Origin: a virus
Lineage: Duplodnaviria; Heunggongvirae; Uroviricota; Caudoviricetes
IMG/VR virus record: IMGVR_UViG_2568526722_000001
Length of the DNA stretch: 32,452 nucleotides
Direction: 5' to 3' (one strand)
Shown here: in pieces, positions 7,103 to 30,900 of the stretch
Numbering within the stretch: the first letter of the stretch is position 1
Layout of the letters: each line of letters starts with the position of its first letter
The notes under the pieces: model-generated
Database searches by the model: none
The model's input: the letters and a program-made list of their open reading frames with translations, nothing else
Told to the model about the DNA's origin: nothing
Translations under genes and position numbers: made by a program

Positions 7103-8404
7103 TTAAATCCGAAGTGATGTGACTCTTCCGGTCGGTTTGACAATAGGGAATTGCTTAACGATGAAATAACCTCCGGCATCATTCGGGTGATCATTGCCAG
7201 ATTTTTTATCAGGCTCCCCCTTCTCATCCCAGACCTGTTGCTCCAGAGATTCGGCATATAACGGGCAACGCTTCACATTAACTTTATAGCGACGCTCACC
7301 ATTGGCATTGCAGAACATTGCATTCATTGAGTTAACGCGATCTTTTACTGGCGGGTTCGAGCTGTTCACCACAACGTTAAAACCAGCCTGCTTAAGCTGG
7401 GCTATATCCGTCGTACTTGCGTTACTTGATTTTCTGGAATCCCCGGAAGCATCTGGATAAATATAAATTTCCCTCACTTTCCGGTAATCATTCCCATCAT
7501 ACAGCCAGAAGCGTTCTTTAATGATGCGGATCATATCCGGCGTATCGTAGGCATTGATGATTTCAGTTACCGCACATGGAAGCCCCAAACGCAGCACATG
7601 GACGATTCCCGCCATCTTTCCAACGTTAAAATCCATCCCAATATAAATCGGCTCCCCTGGCTGCTCCACTTCTTCGCAATTATTCAGTTTCCGGTCAAAC
7701 TGATGGTAAACAGTACCACTTGTCAGGTTAGTAAACTGTCCTCGCAGATAGGCTTTAATCAGCTCTGGAGGGTATGATTCAAGAAGCGAAGGAATGTAAT
7801 CTGCTGGCAGGTTCTTTTCATTATCGAAAGTAGATGCCTGCACCAGACCATACAGTGAGGCCAGCTCTGTTTTTTCACGCACGGCTTTAACAAACTGCTC
7901 GTAGACAAATTTGAATCCTTCCGGCGTGGTTGTAACGTCAATACCGTTGCGAAGTCCATCAATCTTATAACGCATACGCGCAATTATCTTGCGCCACGCC
8001 GTTCTGGCTTTTTCCTTCGGCAAAATGTCCAGTTCATCCACCAACGCATTACCAATTTTGAAACCGACGATCGTTTGTGGCTTCTCCATCGATCTGCAGA
8101 TAGTGGTTCCCCGATACTGGCGTCCGTAATAAAAGTGAACCTCTTTATTTCCCTCATTAATTTTTACGTTCAATCCCCAGTCAGCAGCAACTTCTTCCAC
8201 TGTAGGGTAAAAAATATCGCGAATTTGGGGATACGTTGGCGCAAAATATCCCTGATTTATACCTGGATGCTCCCAAATCCCCTTGCATATGCCGCCACAC
8301 CCAACCCATGTTTTGCCCGAGCCAAAACCAGCAATATAGGCTTTAAATTTATGGGGCATTGAAAGAAATCGCGCCTGAGGCACATTAAGCGTCGGAGAGA
8401 TCAT
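7103..8404 (-). CDS. Terminase large subunit
   Basis: Walker A motif (AGFGSGKTW) near the N-terminus and a size of about 433 aa. The ATG at 8404 has an AAGGAG Shine-Dalgarno with 8-nt spacing; the track ORF begins at a GTG at 8413. Confidence 0.85.
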   Translation of the reverse strand: MISPTLNVPQARFLSMPHKFKAYIAGFGSGKTWVGCGGICKGIWEHPGINQGYFAPTYPQIRDIFYPTVEEVAADWGLNVKINEGNKEVHFYYGRQYRGTTICRSMEKPQTIVGFKIGNALVDELDILPKEKARTAWRKIIARMRYKIDGLRNGIDVTTTPEGFKFVYEQFVKAVREKTELASLYGLVQASTFDNEKNLPADYIPSLLESYPPELIKAYLRGQFTNLTSGTVYHQFDRKLNNCEEVEQPGEPIYIGMDFNVGKMAGIVHVLRLGLPCAVTEIINAYDTPDMIRIIKERFWLYDGNDYRKVREIYIYPDASGDSRKSSNASTTDIAQLKQAGFNVVVNSSNPPVKDRVNSMNAMFCNANGERRYKVNVKRCPLYAESLEQQVWDEKGEPDKKSGNDHPNDAGGYFIVKQFPIVKPTGRVTSLRI

Positions 8405-9479
8405 CTTCATCACTCCTTACTCTGGCATCAACCACATTAATATTGATCGCCACAGGCTGGGGATGTTCATTATCTTCCACCGTTTCGATCTCTTTGCGCA
8501 GCTTCTGGTTTTCCATTCTGCGCCGTTCAATTTCCAGTTCCTGTAGCCGCTTATCTGCACATAAAGCCCCGCCAGCAGAAAGCAAACGCAACAATTCACG
8601 CCGGGCGGCAGCCTTATCCTCCAGCAGGATCTCAACGCCGAATTTTCCGAATTTTGCCCCTGCATATAATTGCCGCGCATCCCCATCAAGCAGAGTGGTA
8701 TCAGCCATATAAAGCTGTCCCGTTCCCTCACCGCAGCACTTCGGGCAGTCCGGATTGGGTATGGCGTTATCAACAAAGCCGAGGCCTCCATATTCCGGTT
8801 CGGGTTTGCCATCTCTGGAAGCCTGCGCCGCTGCCTTGTCGAATTCTGCTATATCGCGCCACTGGTAGAGATGATTCTCGCCCCAGCAATAACGGCAGTT
8901 AACACGGCGAAATTGTGCAAGCTGATTGGGGTCGGCCAGGACAATGGCCATCAACTGACTCACTAGTAAATCCAGGTCTGCGGTATAGCGTTTCTGGTAC
9001 TGATTGCGGAAGTAGCTGATAGCGCGAAAAACCCTGGCATTTCTAAGCATACGACTGGCGTTGCTGTTAGCTGTCGCACCTTGCCCCTCATAACCGGCTA
9101 GTCGGTACGCCTCTGTCGGCTTTTTACCCTGAGCAACAAGCATCGCAAACTTAGCCTGCTGGTCAGAAATGCCGAATTCATCGGGACAGAACGAAAATTC
9201 CTCCGCGTCGCCCTCATTCAGGCCCGCATCGAATACTGGCTTTTTTTCCTGAGATTTTTCGTTCCGCTTTTGTGCAGTCTGCGCAGATTTTTTCTGCGCA
9301 CTTTTTTGCGCAGTTTTGCGCATTTCTGTCTGCGCATTTTTCGGAGTTTTTTTGATGTAACGACGGGCTGTTGCGTAATTCAGTCCCCTTGCTTCACACC
9401 ATGCCACCGGAGATATACCGGAGCGGGTGTATTCAGCAATATACTCCTGCTGCAACGCCCCCCAGTCCGGTCTGCTCAT
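8385..9479 (-). CDS. Terminase small subunit-like DNA-binding protein
   Basis: 364-aa ORF directly upstream of and overlapping the large terminase. It has an N-terminal HTH-like region, a lysine/alanine/glutamine-rich repeat and an acidic C-terminus. ATG at 9479 with an AGGA Shine-Dalgarno. Confidence 0.6.
   Translation of the reverse strand: MSRPDWGALQQEYIAEYTRSGISPVAWCEARGLNYATARRYIKKTPKNAQTEMRKTAQKSAQKKSAQTAQKRNEKSQEKKPVFDAGLNEGDAEEFSFCPDEFGISDQQAKFAMLVAQGKKPTEAYRLAGYEGQGATANSNASRMLRNARVFRAISYFRNQYQKRYTADLDLLVSQLMAIVLADPNQLAQFRRVNCRYCWGENHLYQWRDIAEFDKAAAQASRDGKPEPEYGGLGFVDNAIPNPDCPKCCGEGTGQLYMADTTLLDGDARQLYAGAKFGKFGVEILLEDKAAARRELLRLLSAGGALCADKRLQELEIERRRMENQKLRKEIETVEDNEHPQPVAININVVDARVRSDEDDLSDA
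9280..9336. repeat. Five phased TGCGCA hexamers each followed by a T-tract (candidate pac or terminase-binding site)
   Basis: TGCGCA occurs at 9280, 9295, 9307, 9317 and 9331, each followed by 3-6 T residues. The array lies inside the small terminase gene and encodes the AQK-type protein repeats. Confidence 0.5.
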
Positions 9480-9482
9480 CAG

Positions 9483-9734
9483 TTAGTCCTGATTTTTATC
9501 CACCCTGAGTAGTTCGCGCAGAGCAAAGGCATCCCCTTTTCTGGCAAGCTTAAACAATGCCGCTCGTAACTCGGCTTCACCTTTCGCTCTGCCCTTACGG
9601 ATGGCCGCATAAAAATCTGTCATTGCTTCCCGATTTTCTTTCAGTCGGTTCAGATCAACATCCAGAACGTCAGCGATTTGTTGTGCAGTCATCCGGCACG
9701 CTGCCAGAGACTCGACTTTCGAATACGGAATCAT
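9483..9734 (-). CDS. Small putative DNA-binding protein of 83 aa upstream of the terminase genes
   Basis: ATG at 9734 preceded by GGGGGTGA. The stop lies 3 nt before the small terminase start. The 5' end overlaps the upstream gene by about 65 nt, so the start is uncertain. Confidence 0.45.
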   Translation of the reverse strand: MIPYSKVESLAACRMTAQQIADVLDVDLNRLKENREAMTDFYAAIRKGRAKGEAELRAALFKLARKGDAFALRELLRVDKNQD

Positions 9735-10602
9735 TTGTCACCCCCATTGATATGCAGGGTGTCTTCTTCCTGTATTTTTCGTGAAGGATTTTTACTGCAG
9801 CGTTGTTCCAGGTGACCTGATGGTGAATGCGTTTATGGCTGGCACCCATCAGTGAAATTTTTACGCACGACGGCGCATACATGACGGAGTAAAAACTTTT
9901 AACGTAGGTTCCGGAATCCAGATACAGCTCGGTCATTCCGCCGCTGTTTTTCTGCGTCTGTTTCTGCCCTAACTGGACAGCACCGATCGTCATAAACAAT
10001 TCACCACAGCGACCGAGATTCGTGTACGTATTCACATCCTCGTTAATGCGCCCCATGAATGAGAACGGTCGATCAACCGAACAGATAAAGCTGTTCATTG
10101 CCTTGCGTTTCACCCACGAAGCATGGCCGCCATTGTCACCAAGAAAATCCCCGCCCTGCGACATAGCGATGGAAAGAGCAGGTATTGATTCGTAGTACGC
10201 CAGCATTTCAGAAAGGATCGCATCCAGTTTCCTTATCGGAAAATAGGCCTGGTCATAGTTGCGATCCACCCGAAACTGGAACTCGTGATAATCATCATCG
10301 AGCTGAATGAAGTATTTACACCCGACCAGTTTTGCCAGGTCGAAACAGGCATTACGGGCGTAAAAAATTGAGCGGCGGTCACAGAAATTATCGGCTTCGT
10401 CAAAACGACTGGCGATATCGGCTTTGGAAAACACCAGCACCTGTTCACCAAATTCAGCCATGTACTGATGCCGTGTCTTATCTTCATCATCAACAACGAT
10501 AAAAATTTTCCCGGTATAGCCAGCACGACGCAACGTCCGGTAAGTCAGAACTTTGTCCGGTCGCCCGTGAGTCAGAATAAAGGCGCAAAAATCATCACGC
10601 AT
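9670..10602 (-). CDS. DxD-motif protein, possibly a nucleotide-sugar transferase-like enzyme (intact counterpart of the K-12 Rac ydaY remnant?)
   Basis: Start taken at the ATG at 10602, which has a strong GGAGGAGG Shine-Dalgarno and overlaps the ParB-like stop (ATGCGTGA). Contains IVVDDED and QLDDDYHEF motifs. The functional call is an inference from these motifs only. Confidence 0.45.
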   Translation of the reverse strand: MRDDFCAFILTHGRPDKVLTYRTLRRAGYTGKIFIVVDDEDKTRHQYMAEFGEQVLVFSKADIASRFDEADNFCDRRSIFYARNACFDLAKLVGCKYFIQLDDDYHEFQFRVDRNYDQAYFPIRKLDAILSEMLAYYESIPALSIAMSQGGDFLGDNGGHASWVKRKAMNSFICSVDRPFSFMGRINEDVNTYTNLGRCGELFMTIGAVQLGQKQTQKNSGGMTELYLDSGTYVKSFYSVMYAPSCVKISLMGASHKRIHHQVTWNNAAVKILHEKYRKKTPCISMGVTNDSVFESRVSGSVPDDCTTNR

Positions 10603-11386
10603 ATTCCTCCTCCTCACCACCATGCATGATCTCCACCATGCGCTGCGTCATCCGGACAAATCCATTTTCAATAGCCTGCTGATAATCAATGATCACCAGC
10701 GCCGACTCCTCGAAAAAACACTGAATTTCAGAGGGGGCGTGAGCGTAATAGTCCGCAATTCTGCTGAAATTAAACACCGTGTGACGTTCTGCCGCACACA
10801 GGAGGAATTTCTCAATATCAGGCTCAAGGGACGCCGAACGTATCCGGCTGATCAGCTCCTGAGTTTTCGTATCGTCGTACAGTTCACTGATATCCGGTTT
10901 ACCGCCCGACGGCTCATAAACAGGCGTATCAATTTTCGTCGTATACGGCTCCTCCTCATTTCCTGTACCGGGCAAAACATCCGTCAACAGTTCATCAATT
11001 TCTGTCGGGATGAAGCCTGTCAGGGAGACATCAAAATCAGCATTGATTAGGTCCGACAGCTCCATCCGCAACAGATCTTCATCCCAGCCAGCATTCATCG
11101 GCAGGCGATTATCTGCCAGGCGGTACGCCTTTTTCTGCTCCTCCGTCAGGCCAGACAGAACAATGACCGGAACAGAATCCATTTTGAGCATTTCAGCCGC
11201 CATAACACGACCGTGACCCGCAATAATTTCGCCCTTTTCGTCAATCAGCACCGGATTAGTCCAGCCGAATTGCTTAATACTTTCTACCAGTTGTGCCACC
11301 TGCTCAGTACTGTGCGTCCTGGCGTTGTGCGCATACGGTGACAATTCTTGTAATGGGCGATAGACTATCTTTAATTTCTCGCTCAT
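10595..11386 (-). CDS. ParB-like nuclease domain protein (full-length counterpart of K-12 Rac ynaK)
   Basis: The N-terminal region (YRPLQELSPYAHNARTHSTEQVAQLVESIKQFGWTNPVLID...GHGRVMAA) has the ParB/Srx-like signature. ATG at 11386 with an AAGG upstream. Confidence 0.7.
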   Translation of the reverse strand: MSEKLKIVYRPLQELSPYAHNARTHSTEQVAQLVESIKQFGWTNPVLIDEKGEIIAGHGRVMAAEMLKMDSVPVIVLSGLTEEQKKAYRLADNRLPMNAGWDEDLLRMELSDLINADFDVSLTGFIPTEIDELLTDVLPGTGNEEEPYTTKIDTPVYEPSGGKPDISELYDDTKTQELISRIRSASLEPDIEKFLLCAAERHTVFNFSRIADYYAHAPSEIQCFFEESALVIIDYQQAIENGFVRMTQRMVEIMHGGEEEEYA

Positions 11387-11523
11387 ACAGCCTTGCTTTA
11401 TGAATAAAACGCACCCCAGCAGCCAGTGCTACTGGGGGCGGAGGTGTTGCTGGTAAAGTTAGGTATTGGATCAATGAGTGAGTCAATATAATATTAAACT
11501 CACAATTATAAATCAGCCATATA

Positions 11524-12981
11524 TTAGGAGCGCCAAAAAAAACCTGAAAACAATATAATAACAGGATAAATTTCAAGGCGACCAAGAATCATAGCTATGC
11601 ACATTAAATATTTTGCAATGTCATTAAGCACTCCGAATGACGATGCAGTAGCCCCAAAACCTAATCCCATATTATTAATACATGCAGCCACTGTTGCAAA
11701 TGATGTAAGAAAATCATATCCCATACCATTTAACACCAGTATAAAAAACACCGTGAAGAGAGTATAAAGAAAAAAGAAACTCCATACAGACCTCATTACA
11801 CGATCTGTAACTATCTTCCCTCCTACATTTACACTCAACAACGCTCTGGGATGAGAAAGCTGATTTATCTCGTGTTTGCTTTGTTTGAAAAGTATAAGAA
11901 ATCGAAGTGACTTAATTCCACCACAAGTTGAACCTATACATCCCCCAAAGAAACTTGACGACAGCAAAAACACTATCGTGTGCGTGGGCCAGTTTGCATA
12001 ATCCTGCGTAGCTAAACCATTATCAGTGAGCATGGAGCTGGCAAGAAAAAACGAATGAATAAAACTTCCATGCAAGTCATACATACCTATATGCCAGACC
12101 TGGAAAGAGGTAACAATGATCACCCCTAAGGCTATTAACAGAAAGAAACGAAGTTCAATATCTCTGATTAAAGGTTTTATCGTTTTCCTGCTAATAACAA
12201 TATACCAAAGAGTGAAGTTGAAAGCCGATAGCAGGGAAAAAGAACCAGCCACCAGCTCAACCAAATAGTTATTAAAATATCCGATACTCTCGCTATGAGT
12301 TGAGAAACCACCAAGCGAAACTGTGGAAATCCCGTGACAAATAGCATCAAACAAAGGCATTCCTGCAAGTCTATAACAGACAATACAAGCAATACCTAAT
12401 AAAGAATAAGTTATCCACAGTGTCCGTGACGTATCGGCCAGGCGGGGAGTGAGTTTGTCATCCTTAAATGGCCCCGGCATTTCTGACTGATAAAGCTTTG
12501 CACCACCAATACCCAATAATGGCAATACAGCAACCGCCAGAACAATAACTCCTAAACCACCTATAAAATTTAACTGTGACCGATAGTACAAATATGCCCG
12601 AGGTAATGAACTAACATCATCAATTACAGTTGCTCCTGTTGTTGTTATTCCAGAAACCCCTTCAAACAGAGCATCAATGAACGTTAAATTAAGTTCTGAG
12701 TCAATCCATAAAGGGAATGCACTAATAACAGAAAACAAAATCCAAAACATTACAATTATAATAAACCCATCACGGGTACGTAATTGAATGCCAGATTTCT
12801 TAGTTGTATACCACGCTCCGCCACCAATGCAAAAAAATATAACGAAAGTTATAAAGAAAACGAACAGGCTTTTTTCTTTATAAAACAATGCTACAACCAT
12901 TGGTGGCAACATTGAAAGACTATAGAGCCAAACCAGGAACCCACACATATGAGTAACAACTCTTACATGAGATGTATTCAT
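11524..12981 (-). CDS. trkG: Potassium uptake protein TrkG
   Basis: 485-aa polytopic membrane protein from MNTSHVRVV..., matching my memory of the Rac prophage TrkG from E. coli K-12. The gene is visibly AT-rich compared with its neighbours. Confidence 0.9.
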   Translation of the reverse strand: MNTSHVRVVTHMCGFLVWLYSLSMLPPMVVALFYKEKSLFVFFITFVIFFCIGGGAWYTTKKSGIQLRTRDGFIIIVMFWILFSVISAFPLWIDSELNLTFIDALFEGVSGITTTGATVIDDVSSLPRAYLYYRSQLNFIGGLGVIVLAVAVLPLLGIGGAKLYQSEMPGPFKDDKLTPRLADTSRTLWITYSLLGIACIVCYRLAGMPLFDAICHGISTVSLGGFSTHSESIGYFNNYLVELVAGSFSLLSAFNFTLWYIVISRKTIKPLIRDIELRFFLLIALGVIIVTSFQVWHIGMYDLHGSFIHSFFLASSMLTDNGLATQDYANWPTHTIVFLLSSSFFGGCIGSTCGGIKSLRFLILFKQSKHEINQLSHPRALLSVNVGGKIVTDRVMRSVWSFFFLYTLFTVFFILVLNGMGYDFLTSFATVAACINNMGLGFGATASSFGVLNDIAKYLMCIAMILGRLEIYPVIILFSGFFWRS

Positions 12982-17433: not shown

Positions 17434-17586
17434 TCACTCCTCAGGTTCGTAAGCTGTGAAGACAGCGACCTCCGTCTGACCGGTTCGGATTTGTACCTCG
17501 CAGAAGTCTTTCCTTGTTACCAGTGCCATCACAACGACGGTAATACAGATGACAATCAGGGCGATTAACATCGTCTTTTGCTGCAT
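17434..17586 (-). CDS. hok: Hok/Gef-family type I toxin
   Basis: The 50-aa product MQQKTMLIALIVICITVVVMALVTRKDFCEVQIRTGQTEVAVFTAYEPEE is highly similar to HokC(Gef) and HokD(RelF) as I remember them. A perfect 8-bp stem hairpin (ggcgaggg / ccctcgcc) follows the stop at about 17405-17427. Confidence 0.8.
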   Translation of the reverse strand: MQQKTMLIALIVICITVVVMALVTRKDFCEVQIRTGQTEVAVFTAYEPEE

Positions 17587-17600
17587 CACAGCCTACTTAC

Positions 17601-17635
17601 CCTTACCTTTCGTTCAAGCGGTAAGGTCACTTTTT
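17601..17635 (+). ncRNA. Candidate Sok-like antisense RNA 3' end (terminator hairpin plus T-tract) next to the hok start
   Basis: Plus-strand inverted repeat ccttacc (12 nt) ggtaagg followed by tcactttttctg, 15 nt beyond the hok start codon. Position and orientation fit an antisense RNA terminator. The 5' end and promoter are not identified. Confidence 0.3.
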
Positions 17636-17734
17636 CTGTTGTGTGCTAACCAACAAACCTCTTTTATCTGCATTAAAAATCGTTATCATGTCATCCTCAA
17701 CCTGTTAATAGCCTATTATGGACTTTAGTAAACA

Positions 17735-19564
17735 ATGAGCACTTCCGCATACAAGAGCAAAATTCGAACACTCCAGTGCGCGTTAAAAAACGGTGAATTT
17801 GAACCATTCATACAACATATCCGTTTTCCATACTTTAAAAATATAGAGCAGAATGCAAGGATCGATTTTCAGTTCCCTATAACGGCTTTAGTAGGAAAAA
17901 ATGGAACTAATAAAAGTTCTGTTATCAAAGCGCTATTTGGTTGCCCACATGGTAAAAATATAACTCGTTATTGGTTCACAACTGAAACAGATGAGTTTCC
18001 TGACCTAAAACTTGCTGATGGCAGTTCTCTTAAACCTAGATATATATATGGATATAAAAATGCTGATGGCCGTTTAGTTGAAATACTCCAAGCACGTATC
18101 AATGCTACCAAGAAAACAATCGATTATTGGGAAACAAGTCGACCATCTGTTGGTGATAACATGGAGAGTATTTCGGATGATCTGGGTGCTAATAGTAATG
18201 CAACCAGATGGAAAAAAATCAAGAAGGGATTGGTTTTCCTAGATTTCAGATCGGAAATAAGTGCATTTGATAGATGTATGTATCACTCTGATTTTAAATT
18301 AAGAAAGAAGAAGAGTGGTGTATTAATTACAAAGCAAGACTATATCAGAAGCAAATCTAAATATATAAAGAAAGCTTTTGATGAAAAGCTAAGTAATTTA
18401 AGACTCTGGGGGGCGGAAACCATTGTTAAAAATATAACCTTGGCGCCAGAACTAGTTGAGCACGTCTCATTTATATTAGGGAAAAAATATAAAGTCATTA
18501 AATTTCTTGAGCATCGGTTATTTGGAACCAGAGGAGGAACCGCTTTACTTTCAACTGATAAGTTGAACTATACAGAAGCGTTTGCTGGAAGTGGTGAATT
18601 TGCAATAGTTTCACTAATACTCAATATTTATTCGGCCAAACCTAATTCATTAATTCTTCTTGACGAACCAGAAGTTTCACTTCACCCTGGTGCACAAAAA
18701 AGGATGATGGATGTTCTGTACTCTATTGTTGAGCAGAAAAAACATCAAGTGGTAATATCAACCCATTCTCCTGTTATTGTGAACACTCTTCCCAAAGATG
18801 CCATTAAATTATTTGTTTTTGATGAAGAGAGTGAAACAGCTAAAATAGTTCAAAATATAGCACCGGATGAAGCTTTTATAGAGCTAGGGCATGATATTAA
18901 CAAGAAAACAATAATTGTAGAAGATAAATTAGCTAAAGCAATTATAGATAAAGCGATTAAAAATGATGAAAGATTAAGCTTATCATTTAGTGTAAGTTAT
19001 ATACCAGGTGGTTCGGAGACCATTTTAAGCAAGCATCTTCCCAGTTACGCTGTGGTAGAACGCAATGATATTTTGTTTTTACTTGATGGTGATAAAAACA
19101 AAAAAATAAAACCAGTAAGAATTAGTGAAATTGCTGATGCTGATTTAGTTAATACAATGTGCAAATATTATGGTTGCGAGTTAATTATCAATGCCAGTGG
19201 TAGTAATGGCAAAAAAAATGAACAAGAATCTAATAGACTCAAAAGGCAAGTGCTTGAGTATGCATTCAATAAAGTGCAGTATTTACCATTTGATACTCCC
19301 GAACAATTACTCATTGAAAAGGCAATTACGCCAAGTGAAAAAGAAATAATTGATTCACAGACCTGGAGTTCTAATGATCCAGAACTGTATAAGAATCAAA
19401 TAAGATTATTAGCGCAACACCTGTATGATAAAGAAGAAGTAAATGCAGAGGAAATTTTTTGCCTCCAACAAATGATGACCGCAAGACTTAAAAATGAATT
19501 GCCTGAATTTATAAAAATAAGAAAAATAATTACTCAGGCTCTTGACCGTGGTATCATTAGGTAG
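17735..19564 (+). CDS. ABC-type ATPase with a C-terminal TOPRIM-like domain (OLD-family / GajA-like putative nuclease)
   Basis: Walker A (LVGKNGTNKSS); a long insert; signature-like AFAGSGEF; Walker B (LILLDEPEVSLH); H-loop (VISTHSP). The C-terminal region has an invariant-Glu motif (TIIVEDKLAKAII) and a DxD motif (LFLLDGDKNKK) as in TOPRIM. 609 aa, in an AT-rich segment. Confidence 0.7.
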   Translation: MSTSAYKSKIRTLQCALKNGEFEPFIQHIRFPYFKNIEQNARIDFQFPITALVGKNGTNKSSVIKALFGCPHGKNITRYWFTTETDEFPDLKLADGSSLKPRYIYGYKNADGRLVEILQARINATKKTIDYWETSRPSVGDNMESISDDLGANSNATRWKKIKKGLVFLDFRSEISAFDRCMYHSDFKLRKKKSGVLITKQDYIRSKSKYIKKAFDEKLSNLRLWGAETIVKNITLAPELVEHVSFILGKKYKVIKFLEHRLFGTRGGTALLSTDKLNYTEAFAGSGEFAIVSLILNIYSAKPNSLILLDEPEVSLHPGAQKRMMDVLYSIVEQKKHQVVISTHSPVIVNTLPKDAIKLFVFDEESETAKIVQNIAPDEAFIELGHDINKKTIIVEDKLAKAIIDKAIKNDERLSLSFSVSYIPGGSETILSKHLPSYAVVERNDILFLLDGDKNKKIKPVRISEIADADLVNTMCKYYGCELIINASGSNGKKNEQESNRLKRQVLEYAFNKVQYLPFDTPEQLLIEKAITPSEKEIIDSQTWSSNDPELYKNQIRLLAQHLYDKEEVNAEEIFCLQQMMTARLKNELPEFIKIRKIITQALDRGIIR

Positions 19565-19587
19565 TGATTCTGGATGCAGAGGGAAAA

Positions 19588-20628
19588 ATGAAAAAAATCA
19601 AAGTGTTTGACTTCTTTTCCGGTTGTGGTGGAACCAGCCAAGGTTTCCATCAAGCTGGAATGGATATTGTTTTTGGCCTCGATTTCGACGTTGATGCAGC
19701 CAGTTCATTTCGTGCAAATTTCCCGCAGGCTGCTTTTATTAACTCGGACATTAGGTTAATCGACAACAATGCCATAAACAAGTTAGTAAAAAAACATCGT
19801 AATGATTACATTCTTTTTTCAGGATGTGCGCCTTGTCAACCGTACTCTAAGCAAAACTCAAATAAGAAAAATGATGATCCACGATTAGATCTATTAAAGG
19901 AATTCAGTCGCTTTGTAGAGCATTATATGCCTGATTTTATTTTTGTTGAAAACGTGCCAGGAATGCAAAAGTTTAACAAAAATGAAGGAACATTCATGAT
20001 GTTTTTAGAAATGCTTTCATCAAAGGGATATAGTGTAGATTATAAAGTAATGCCAGCTGCGTGGTACGGTGTACCACAGACGCGAGAAAGATTAGTGCTC
20101 ATTGCATCCAAGGATTTTTATGTCGCATTGCCTTCTCCTACACATGGGGTTGGAAATACTCCCTATTCAACAGTAAAGGACTGGATCGCTAATTTACCGA
20201 AGATAGAAGCAGGAGAAAAGCATAATAGTATTCCTGATCATGAAGCTGCACGCTTATCAGAGCTTAATTTACGTAGAATAAAATGCACTCCTGAAGGTGG
20301 AAGTCGAGAATTTTGGCCAGATGAATTGATTTTAGAATGCCATCGTAACCATAAAGGGCATACAGACGTATATGGACGTTTGAGTTGGGACAAACCAGCC
20401 AGCGGACTAACAACTCGTTGTATTAGCTATTCAAATGGACGTTTTGGACATCCAACACAAAATCGAGCAATATCGGTTCGTGAAGCAGCGTGTCTACAAA
20501 CATTTCCTTTGGATTATAAATTTATTGGTTCTTTGCAATCTCGGGCTCGTCAAATAGGAAATGCGGTCCCTCCGAAGATGTCTGAAACGATTGGAAAACA
20601 TTTGCTTAATATAATCAAAGCCTCCTAG
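19588..20628 (+). CDS. DNA (cytosine-5)-methyltransferase
   Basis: Canonical C5-methyltransferase motifs in order: I (FDFFSGCGG), IV (GCAPCQPYS), VI (ENVPGM), VIII (PQTRERLVLIA), IX (RAISVREAACLQTFPLDY), X (QIGNAVPP). Starts 23 nt after the ATPase stop; the track ORF begins earlier at a GTG at 19564. Confidence 0.9.
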   Translation: MKKIKVFDFFSGCGGTSQGFHQAGMDIVFGLDFDVDAASSFRANFPQAAFINSDIRLIDNNAINKLVKKHRNDYILFSGCAPCQPYSKQNSNKKNDDPRLDLLKEFSRFVEHYMPDFIFVENVPGMQKFNKNEGTFMMFLEMLSSKGYSVDYKVMPAAWYGVPQTRERLVLIASKDFYVALPSPTHGVGNTPYSTVKDWIANLPKIEAGEKHNSIPDHEAARLSELNLRRIKCTPEGGSREFWPDELILECHRNHKGHTDVYGRLSWDKPASGLTTRCISYSNGRFGHPTQNRAISVREAACLQTFPLDYKFIGSLQSRARQIGNAVPPKMSETIGKHLLNIIKAS

Positions 20629-20644
20629 GAGGCTTTATTTTATT
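20617..20644 (+). terminator. Intrinsic terminator at the end of the ATPase-methyltransferase cassette
   Basis: Perfect inverted repeat aaagcctcc / ggaggcttt with the methyltransferase stop codon TAG in the loop, followed by attttattg. Confidence 0.6.
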
Positions 20645-20661
20645 GTTATCCCCCCTAGTAG

Positions 20662-30512: not shown

Positions 30513-30719
30513 ATGACAAAAACTTTGAGATATGACGATGTTAAACCATGTCCGTTTTGTGGTTGTCCATCAGTAACGGTGAAAGACATTTCAGGATATT
30601 ACCGGGCAAAATGCAACGGATGCGAATCCCGAACTGGCTATGGTGGAAGTGAAAAAGAAGCGCTCGAAAGATGGAATAAACGAACCACTGAAAATATTAA
30701 TGGAGGCGTTCATGTATAA
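30513..30719 (+). CDS. ralR: RalR (Lar) restriction-alleviation protein / type I toxin
   Basis: ...RYDDVKPCPFCGCPSVTVKDISGYYRAKCNGCESRTGYGGSEKEALERWNKRTT... The 64-aa core matches K-12 RalR. The start may instead be the TTG at 30525. Confidence 0.7.
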   Translation: MTKTLRYDDVKPCPFCGCPSVTVKDISGYYRAKCNGCESRTGYGGSEKEALERWNKRTTENINGGVHV

Positions 30720-30900
30720 AATTACCGCTACAATTGAAAAGGAAGGTGGCACTCCTACTAACTGGACAAGATATTCAAAATCTAAACTAACGAAATCAGA
30801 ATGCGAAAAAATGCTCTCAGGTAAAAAAGAAGCAGGCGTTTCCAGAGAGCAGAAAGTAAAACTGATAAATTTTAATTGCGAGAAACTTCAGTCCTCGTGA
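30712..30900 (+). CDS. ydaC: YdaC-like small protein
   Basis: MYKITATIEKEGGTPTNWTRYSKSKLTKSECEKMLSGKKEAGVSREQKVKLINFNCEKLQSS, with GGAGG upstream of the ATG. It overlaps the ralR stop. Confidence 0.6.
   Translation: MYKITATIEKEGGTPTNWTRYSKSKLTKSECEKMLSGKKEAGVSREQKVKLINFNCEKLQSS

Follow-up and report, generated by a model that had tools for sequence, protein, structure and literature searches.

A two-gene cassette that couples an OLD-like ABC-ATPase/Toprim protein (gene 1) to a cytosine-5 (C5) DNA methyltransferase (gene 2) is carried by a 32,452-nucleotide (nt) stretch of Caudoviricetes DNA (IMG/VR record IMGVR_UViG_2568526722_000001; "the window" below denotes this whole stretch), and the pair is probably an undescribed restriction-modification-like defence system, since it recurs across bacterial phyla. 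The window matches Escherichia coli chromosomes at 100% identity and spans a Rac-type lambdoid prophage together with its neighbours. The two proteins have a well-defined architecture with intact catalytic motifs, their genes are conserved in linkage and co-inherited, and the pair lies in mobile and prophage contexts. With somewhat better than even confidence, we regard the pair as a horizontally mobile, methylation-based defence cassette of the restriction-modification type and a moron of the Rac-type lambdoid prophage, in which the methyltransferase would mark self and the OLD-like protein would be the effector against unmethylated DNA. This explanation is favoured by the linkage of the genes, their association with Vsr, the intact active sites, the mobile context, the decay of the nuclease gene before the methyltransferase gene, and the precedents of HEC-04 and MADS.

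Co-occurrence of the two genes, on which an earlier note on this DNA had staked its view of a defence cassette, proved to be widespread. A forward survey with one genome per species yielded 80 loci with a gene 1 homologue (33-63% identity) from Proteobacteria, Actinomycetota, Bacteroidota, Bacillota, Patescibacteria and others, and a co-oriented C5 methyltransferase gene lies near the homologue in 73 of them. The methyltransferase gene is directly downstream in approximately 44 loci and upstream in 29, of which approximately 16 adjoin directly and the rest stand behind at least one intervening gene. Most loci are adjacent pairs with gaps of less than approximately 100 nt, and approximately 60 of the 80 consist of just the methyltransferase and OLD-like genes and lack any further restriction enzyme. 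Five loci are devoid of any methyltransferase, three of which end at a contig edge. No recurrent helicase cluster was found among the neighbours of the gene 1 homologues. In the reverse look-up, which sampled Klebsiella, Burkholderia, Pseudomonas and Pasteurella, a gene for an ATPase of approximately 590-607 amino acids (aa) was located directly upstream of the methyltransferase homologue in all four cases (60-63% identity). Divergence among the gene 1 proteins runs parallel to that among their partner methyltransferases: pairwise distances are correlated with r = 0.83 in the close group (n = 38), and a Mantel test that took in all 63 pairs gives p = 0.001. The methyltransferase and nuclease genes are thus linked and co-inherited in the manner of a restriction-modification system. 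Decay of the pair points the same way. In E. coli EC11 (locus L097, 301-2131), a 1-nt insertion splits the nuclease gene into open reading frames (ORFs) of 463 and 159 aa with the methyltransferase intact, and in a Halospina locus (L009) the nuclease gene is broken next to an intact methyltransferase gene; this is the order of loss expected for a restriction-modification pair.

The earlier note had also offered a different reading, in which two independent morons happen to be neighbours: an orphan methyltransferase that guards phage DNA against restriction by the host, and an OLD-like exclusion nuclease unconnected with it. Orphan methyltransferases are often phage-borne, the interval that holds the cassette is a site of variable cargo, and OLD-like proteins can defend alone (bioRxiv 10.1101/2024.01.29.577857). 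This reading is nevertheless very improbable in view of the linkage across phyla in both directions of the survey, the correlated protein distances, the tight spacing with a single terminator closing both genes, and the movement of the pair as a unit among quite different prophage positions. Deep co-inheritance in particular disfavours it, and of the two readings in that note the restriction-modification-like module is the one that linkage and co-inheritance favour.

The gene 1 protein is an OLD-like ABC-ATPase/Toprim fusion that forms a sequence-distinct clade. Its N-terminal part has the Walker A, signature, Walker B and H-loop motifs of the ABC ATPase of the OLD superfamily; the ABC-ATPase motifs pointed out in the earlier note are supported by Pfam matches to AAA_21 (1.8e-20), AAA_15 (3.6e-20) and also SMC_N, with the ATPase reaching approximately aa 370, and the residues numbered for this module in Table 1 are invariant across 19 homologues of 38-83% identity. 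The C-terminal part has the other feature of the superfamily, a Toprim fold with a conserved Glu and DxD metal site. All C-terminal residues listed in Table 1 are invariant in the same 19 homologues, and two fold-comparison methods rank the Toprim nuclease domains of the OLD family closest to this domain, with Thermus scotoductus OLD (TsOLD) among the top matches, AriB second-best and GajA also present. The predicted structure of the C-terminal part agrees with the TOPRIM hallmarks that had been read from the letters, which correspond to E396/D397 and D451-G-D453. The AlphaFold model of the whole protein (predicted local distance difference test 81) resembles the heads of SMC, Rad50, PtuA, AriA and GajA. 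Of the profile matches anticipated in the earlier note, AAA_15/AAA_21 in gene 1 and PF00145 in gene 2 were found, and neither Toprim_OLD nor DUF4435 was; the Pfam scan of gene 1 gave no match past aa 369 at E <= 0.1. As Pfam shows no Toprim match, the Toprim assignment depends on structure prediction and motif conservation.

Curated profiles place gene 1 near several known ATPase-Toprim proteins and within none of them. The best PADLOC models are HEC-04 (1.7e-34, 117 bits, profile positions 160-383 of 494) and the retron I-B effector ATPase-Toprim_I-B (2.8e-26, gene 1 aa 41-464, profile positions 18-358 of 443), and only these two matches extend to approximately aa 460 of gene 1. Matches to the Old, GajA, AriA and PtuA models are confined to the ATPase core, those to Old and GajA lying at aa ~301-378; no PADLOC model matches gene 1 over its full length, and the nuclease domain is recognised neither by the Toprim families of Pfam nor by the Old and GajA profiles of PADLOC. 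The architecture proposed in the earlier note, that of OLD nucleases and Gabija GajA, thus holds for an ABC ATPase joined to a Toprim domain of the OLD kind; the likeness to GajA is loose, the HEC-04/IbfA and retron I-B effector profiles being closer. A sequence search of the PDB returned only an ATPase stretch of approximately 60 residues shared with OLD, AriA or PtuA, with TsOLD (6p74) as the best match. A profile of the C-terminal domain found 585 cluster representatives among 1.84 billion, and those listed all have the ~600-aa architecture or are fragments of it. In PHROGs the family is phrog_3940, whose function is given there as unknown. Pfam and fold comparison revealed no recognisable DNA sequence-reading domain in gene 1, and no restriction-enzyme family was matched in Pfam or among the 25 best of 141 PADLOC matches.

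The ABC ATPase module has a conserved insert at aa 70-165 (DYWEPSRP, TRWK). In this insert (window 17942-18229), W80, F81, Y105, Y107, D130-Y-W-E133, R136, P137, T157 and R158 are invariant; it is partly modelled at low confidence and has no assigned fold. It could be a DNA- or partner-binding surface.

Gene 2, judged from its motifs and profiles, is a complete Dcm-type C5 DNA methyltransferase, as the earlier note had stated. It matches PF00145 (4.9e-61, 207 bits against a cut-off of 22), TIGR00675 (166 bits against 100.65) and PADLOC MTase_II (1.3e-96), and its translation contains motifs I (FSGCGG), IV (PCQ, Cys83), VI (ENV, 121-123), VIII (QTRER, 164-168) and X (GNAVPP, 324-329), so that the five motifs characteristic of C5 methyltransferases are present and the curated cut-offs are exceeded. 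The nearest solved structures are the DNMT1 catalytic domain and bacterial DNA methyltransferases (1e-38, against 5e-11 for Dnmt2). A Dnmt2-like tRNA methyltransferase was set aside because the similarity is far stronger to DNMT1 and the bacterial enzymes and because Vsr is a frequent neighbour: Vsr, a nuclease for repair of 5-methylcytosine (m5C) deamination, is present in 20 loci, which indicates DNA as the methyltransferase substrate. The target-recognition region (aa 221-300) is conserved to the same degree as the catalytic motifs, suggesting that the methyltransferases of the close group share one specificity. An automatic "M.HgiDII" label on one gene 2 homologue is not evidence of specificity.

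Table 1. Features of the OLD-like/C5 methyltransferase cassette (window coordinates, nt).
Feature	Position	Strand	Basis
Gene 1, 609-aa ABC-ATPase/Toprim (OLD-like) protein	17735..19564	+	ATG ORF; RefSeq WP_000107696.1 "ATP-dependent nuclease"; profile matches; full-length homologues in many phyla
Gene 1 ABC ATPase module, ~aa 25-370	17807..18844	+	Walker A GKNGTNKSS (K60), signature FAGSGEF (S286/G287), Walker B LILLDEPE (D310/E311), H-loop H344
Gene 1 Toprim and helical C-terminal domain, ~aa 385-609	18887..19561	+	Invariant E396/D397, D451-G-D453, E523, K553, Q578
Intergenic spacer, 23 nt, with gene 2 ribosome-binding site GAGGG	19565..19587	+	Sequence
Gene 2, 346-aa cytosine-5 DNA methyltransferase	19588..20628	+	WP_000721512.1 "DNA cytosine methyltransferase"; PF00145, TIGR00675, PADLOC, motifs
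Intrinsic terminator, 8-9 bp GC-containing stem followed by ATTTTATT; overlaps gene 2 stop codon	20617..20644	+	Terminator scan of both strands; sequence

Regarding known systems, gene 1 fits no described OLD class, as it fails the gene-context definitions of Classes 1-4. Class 1 OLD genes are defined as stand-alone genes without a conserved neighbour (PMC10568477). The class includes P2 Old, TsOLD and Vibrio cholerae OLD, of which P2 Old is also prophage-borne and TsOLD is the best PDB match; in contrast, the clade of the cassette is tied to a C5 methyltransferase, and the Class 1 matches (PADLOC Old and 6p74) span only the short ATPase stretch. Gabija (GajA/GajB, Class 2), likewise a two-gene defence operon, also joins an ABC ATPase to a Toprim nuclease, whereas the partner here is a C5 methyltransferase instead of a UvrD-like helicase, and the GajA profiles stay within the ATPase core. 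Gabija was rejected, as no UvrD/PcrA-like helicase is present downstream or elsewhere in the window; the earlier note was correct in finding no such partner, the downstream neighbour of gene 1 being the PF00145 methyltransferase. Class 3, represented by retron I-B (Eco8), was rejected as well, because the neighbours are hok/gef and DUF977, there is no reverse transcriptase or msr/msd RNA, and the profile match is partial. PARIS AriA/AriB (Class 4) and PrrC with EcoprrI are also ABC-type ATPase sensors coupled to a nuclease and linked to restriction systems. PARIS, however, normally consists of two split proteins with a DUF4435 Toprim and no methyltransferase, and its AriA profiles match only the ATPase part of gene 1, whereas PrrC carries another type of nuclease domain and lies within a Type I system; PARIS was rejected because neither AriB nor DUF4435 is present.

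The closest relative by profile, HEC-04/IbfA, is a fused ABC-Toprim protein like gene 1. The HEC-04 fusion defends E. coli and requires Walker A and Toprim metal-site residues for this (bioRxiv 10.1101/2024.01.29.577857), and IbfA interferes with P22-like phages (PMC12111858). These proteins are ~500-520 aa long and act alone without a methyltransferase, whereas gene 1 is approximately 100 aa longer and methyltransferase-linked; gene 1 neither matches the HEC-04/IbfA profile over its full length nor occurs as a single gene. MADS discriminates self from non-self by methylation and contains a methyltransferase, the ABC ATPase Mad3 (AAA_15/21-type) and the Toprim-like Mad4/DUF4276 (bioRxiv 10.1101/2023.03.30.534895; PMC12065111). 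Each of these three components has a counterpart in the cassette, but MADS comprises eight genes with a Type I-like N6-adenine methyltransferase and mandatory Mad6-8, and the cassette consists of two genes with a C5 methyltransferase and a fused ATPase-Toprim protein. MADS was rejected, since the Mad3 NCBIfam model NF047739 scores 37 bits against a cut-off of 420 and only two genes are present.

The likeness to Type II restriction-modification systems lies in a DNA methyltransferase gene that adjoins a nuclease gene on a mobile AT-rich cassette, often near Vsr, with the nuclease decaying first, and the likeness to Type III Res in an NTPase coupled to a nuclease without an evident DNA-reading domain. 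The difference is that the gene 1 nuclease belongs to no known restriction-enzyme family in the Pfam and PADLOC comparisons given above. The established folds of restriction enzymes are PD-(D/E)XK, HNH, GIY-YIG, PLD and half-pipe, and neither a Toprim nuclease nor an ABC ATPase motor is known from any restriction enzyme. Three possible prior examples were rejected: helicase linkage identifies as Gabija the OLD-like genes next to R.PluTI (PMC2875022) and on an island of B. glumae (PMC12755741), and BanLII of Bifidobacterium (PMC3990576) is an unrelated AvaII-type system. Reviews and phylogenies of OLD proteins do not mention a methyltransferase-linked class (PMC10568477, PMC12796447, PMC12392090); one of them lists eleven uncharacterised OLD clades (PMC12796447), and the gene 1 family may be one of these. 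In a search of full-text literature, PADLOC, Pfam and NCBIfam, outside of which lay REBASE and the ABC-ATPase survey of Krishnan et al. 2020, no characterised system with the pairing of an OLD-like protein and a C5 methyltransferase was found, and the novelty claimed in the earlier note stands within these sources.

According to the favoured explanation, the C5 methyltransferase would mark the DNA of the lysogen and its prophage at one fixed sequence motif. The OLD-like protein would serve as the effector, with its ABC ATPase engaging DNA or the methyltransferase and its Toprim domain acting as a nuclease once unmethylated, foreign DNA is present. The two proteins may also form a complex in which the methyltransferase recognises the target, the part that Mod plays for Res in Type III systems; this role is proposed because gene 1 has no recognisable sequence-reading domain and the two genes are tightly coupled. 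From this arrangement we infer that methylation protects and that the nuclease is directed at unmethylated DNA, its presumptive cleavage target.

Several observations weigh against this explanation. At least two loci (L043, L065) have an intact OLD-like gene with no nearby methyltransferase, the methyltransferase of a metagenome-assembly locus (L030) is possibly frameshifted, and a Clostridium plasmid carries a stand-alone homologue of gene 1 with 30% identity. The sigma-70 consensus scan of the + strand over the 145 nt upstream of gene 1 gave no convincing promoter. The explanation presupposes that methylation would protect against gene 1 and that gene 1 would be toxic without gene 2, both of them suppositions. 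Among the characterised relatives, P2 Old, PARIS, IbfA and HEC-04 work without a methyltransferase, and P2 Old and AriB cut tRNA instead of DNA (bioRxiv 10.64898/2026.07.10.737580; PMC11464382). In addition, a classical restriction enzyme is present in five loci: an HpaII-family enzyme (PF09561, 1e-132) in L067 (3657-7764) and L069 (3645-7752), where an M.HpaII-like methyltransferase, this enzyme and the OLD-like gene form one operon with overlapping start and stop codons, and a SmaI-like enzyme beside the methyltransferase in L011, L020 and L038. The OLD-like protein cannot be the sole restriction enzyme there, and may instead be an added or guarding effector. Finally, a GHKL ATPase occurs in ten loci, so that in some lineages the machinery may comprise more than the two genes.

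The operons with classical restriction enzymes lead to the main rival explanation, a guard or abortive-infection module resembling PrrC with EcoprrI, PARIS or P2 Old, which we hold to be possible, though doubtful. The OLD-like protein would be held inactive by its association with the methyltransferase or with an m5C restriction-modification system, would fire on phage interference with methylation or restriction or on aberrant phage-made DNA, and would kill or arrest the cell, possibly by tRNA cleavage. Complete HpaII-type and SmaI-like systems adjoin the gene in these five loci, with coding overlap in the two HpaII-type operons. The closest profiles, HEC-04/IbfA and the retron I-B effector, belong to stand-alone abortive or defence ATPase-Toprim proteins (PMC12111858); DNA structures or anti-restriction proteins set off the tRNases P2 Old and PARIS AriB (bioRxiv 10.64898/2026.07.10.737580; PMC11464382); and a sequence-reading domain is not recognisable in gene 1. 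However, the approximately 60 loci with no other restriction enzyme offer nothing to guard, and an otherwise orphan methyltransferase with a target-recognition region conserved across phyla is hard to explain unless methylation matters to its partner. The stand-alone relatives need no methyltransferase, and the strict linkage observed here calls for a methylation-related role. A further form is a methylation-gated sentinel instead of a restriction enzyme that cuts DNA: the ATPase, alone or with the methyltransferase, would search DNA for unmethylated target sites and, once it meets them, unleash the Toprim domain for abortive cleavage, perhaps of tRNA as reported for P2 Old and PARIS AriB. We consider this form unlikely.

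The GHKL ATPase (HATPase_c_3 with Hypoth_Ymh) of the ten loci mentioned above appears mostly in four-gene operons, ordered M5C > GHKL > OLD-like > Vsr or M5C > OLD-like > GHKL > Vsr. Eight of them end with Vsr (L059, L060, L061, L066, L071, L073, L076 and L081; mostly from Bacteroidota and uncultured lineages), and two (L024, L070) are without it. These operons are reminiscent of the paraMORC restriction-modification systems described by Iyer et al. 2008, an account in which no ABC-Toprim component is mentioned. A GHKL/histidine-kinase and receiver pair is present in 2 loci, and the defence-type neighbourhoods of gene 1 homologues contain GmrSD-like, SNF2, Type I S subunit and HEF_HK/Response_reg_2 genes. 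The extended loci show that the OLD-like gene is placed in m5C-centred conflict systems.

It is conceivable from the same operons that the pair is a repair accessory, in which the ABC ATPase/Toprim protein and the methyltransferase, in some loci with GHKL and Vsr, handle T:G mismatches arising from m5C deamination, as a mobile analogue of MutS (ABC ATPase), MutL (GHKL) and Vsr. The GHKL ATPase is mostly accompanied by Vsr, Vsr is common in the survey as a whole, and a parallel with MutL-based repair has been drawn for the GHKL (paraMORC) genes that accompany C5 methyltransferases and Vsr (PMC2292703). This account is nonetheless improbable: the window cassette and most loci have neither Vsr nor GHKL, Vsr commonly accompanies m5C restriction-modification systems anyway, the family occupies prophage moron sites and defence-type neighbourhoods, and the characterised ABC-Toprim relatives are all defence or toxic nucleases.

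If the pair works as a restriction-modification-type cassette, a methyltransferase-linked class would be added to the OLD family, which is now sorted into classes 1-5 by gene context, and a restriction system would be known whose ABC-ATPase/Toprim effector has none of the established restriction-enzyme folds. The cassette bears on how OLD-type ATPases tell self from non-self, an explicit epigenetic mark being the obvious candidate here; if the sentinel form were true, epigenetic self-marking and abortive infection would be joined in two genes. The cassette is small and spread over at least five phyla, and its recurrence at classical moron positions of prophages (behind cI, behind Q and in the nin-like region) means that it likely shapes superinfection immunity and gene flow in enterobacteria. 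Experiments are feasible with the copy in E. coli ATCC 8739 (Crooks), a strain widely used in laboratories and for quality control, which has 99.9% identity (NZ_CP043852.1, 1004746-1007639). The complete cassette was found in 32 of 5,426 complete E. coli genomes, ATCC 8739 among them, and is chromosomal in every case.

The pair occupies classical positions of lysogen-expressed morons and defence genes. The DUF977-hok interval (window ~17590-20660) is a variable cargo site in Rac-like E. coli prophages (L092, L093, L094), where the alternative cargo is a DUF262 (GmrSD-like) gene with a YfgM-family gene, IS5 with small ORFs, or QueH. Other lambdoid prophages of E. coli and Klebsiella have, in the slot that separates the Q antiterminator from the holin/lysis genes, a paralogous OLD-like/C5 methyltransferase pair of 39% identity (L082-L085, 6001-8835; L086-L087); it is very frequent in E. 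coli and, with 520 blocks of the collection, far commoner than the window version. In Klebsiella the pair in this slot adjoins HicAB. A cI-like repressor gene (helix-turn-helix with Peptidase_S24) immediately precedes the pair on the same strand in Pseudomonas and Pasteurella (L089, 1434-5023; L090, 1439-5038) and also in L008, L015 and L031, suggesting that the pair at this position is expressed in the lysogen. The Burkholderia pair is beside an integrase. No homologue was detected by tblastn in 50,697 phage records at E <= 1e-10, and the plasmid search returned one homologue only, which is distant and stand-alone. As to the slots themselves, the Q-lysis position is that of the stx genes in Stx phages, and the post-cI position is that of rexAB in lambda.

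In the window, the prophage genes follow the order intR, recET, kilR, sieB, racR, ydaS-V, DUF1627, DUF977, cassette, hok/gef, DUF1367, DUF1364, DUF1133, lysis genes and trkG. The layout described in the earlier note agrees with the coordinates: two co-oriented genes 23 nt apart, closed by a clean intrinsic terminator, on the strand opposite the surrounding prophage genes and in a more AT-rich segment. The cassette is on the + strand and every flanking gene is on the minus strand, with hok/gef, DUF1367, DUF1364 and DUF1133 on one side and DUF977, DUF1627 and ydaV on the other. The G+C content (GC) is 0.33-0.38 across most of the cassette and 0.41 towards its 3' end, against 0.45-0.51 in the flanks. 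The gene 1 TAG stop codon is at 19562-19564 and the gene 2 ATG at 19588, with an alternative in-frame upstream GTG start for gene 2 at 19564. On the basis of spacing and terminator, rather than of a mapped promoter, genes 1 and 2 are predicted to form an operon. The terminator hairpin, AAAGCCTCCTAGGAGGCTTT at 20617-20636, scores as terminator-like on both strands and is bidirectional by sequence. Its stem is a perfect palindrome centred on CCTAGG with the gene 2 TAG stop inside, which is probably incidental.

Among the neighbouring genes, a Hok/Gef-family type I toxin gene (window 17434-17589, minus strand) is located 145 nt upstream of gene 1 in divergent orientation. No Sok RNA was found for it in Rfam at the gathering threshold, and homologous hok genes flank the same border of the variable interval in related prophages. 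The sole Rfam match in the window is RalA (RF02694, 218 bits; 30718-30896, minus strand), the antitoxin small RNA of the Rac RalR/RalA type I toxin-antitoxin pair, with neither a retron nor any further RNA in the vicinity of the cassette. Genes of the iron/manganese transporter sitABCD directly adjoin the Rac remnant, which includes a tail-fibre assembly pseudogene and trkG, at window ~7260-10710 and 11520-12980; these positions were obtained through locus L001, the window coordinate being the L001 coordinate minus 601. The trkG segment is strongly AT-rich, with a GC of 0.35-0.41.

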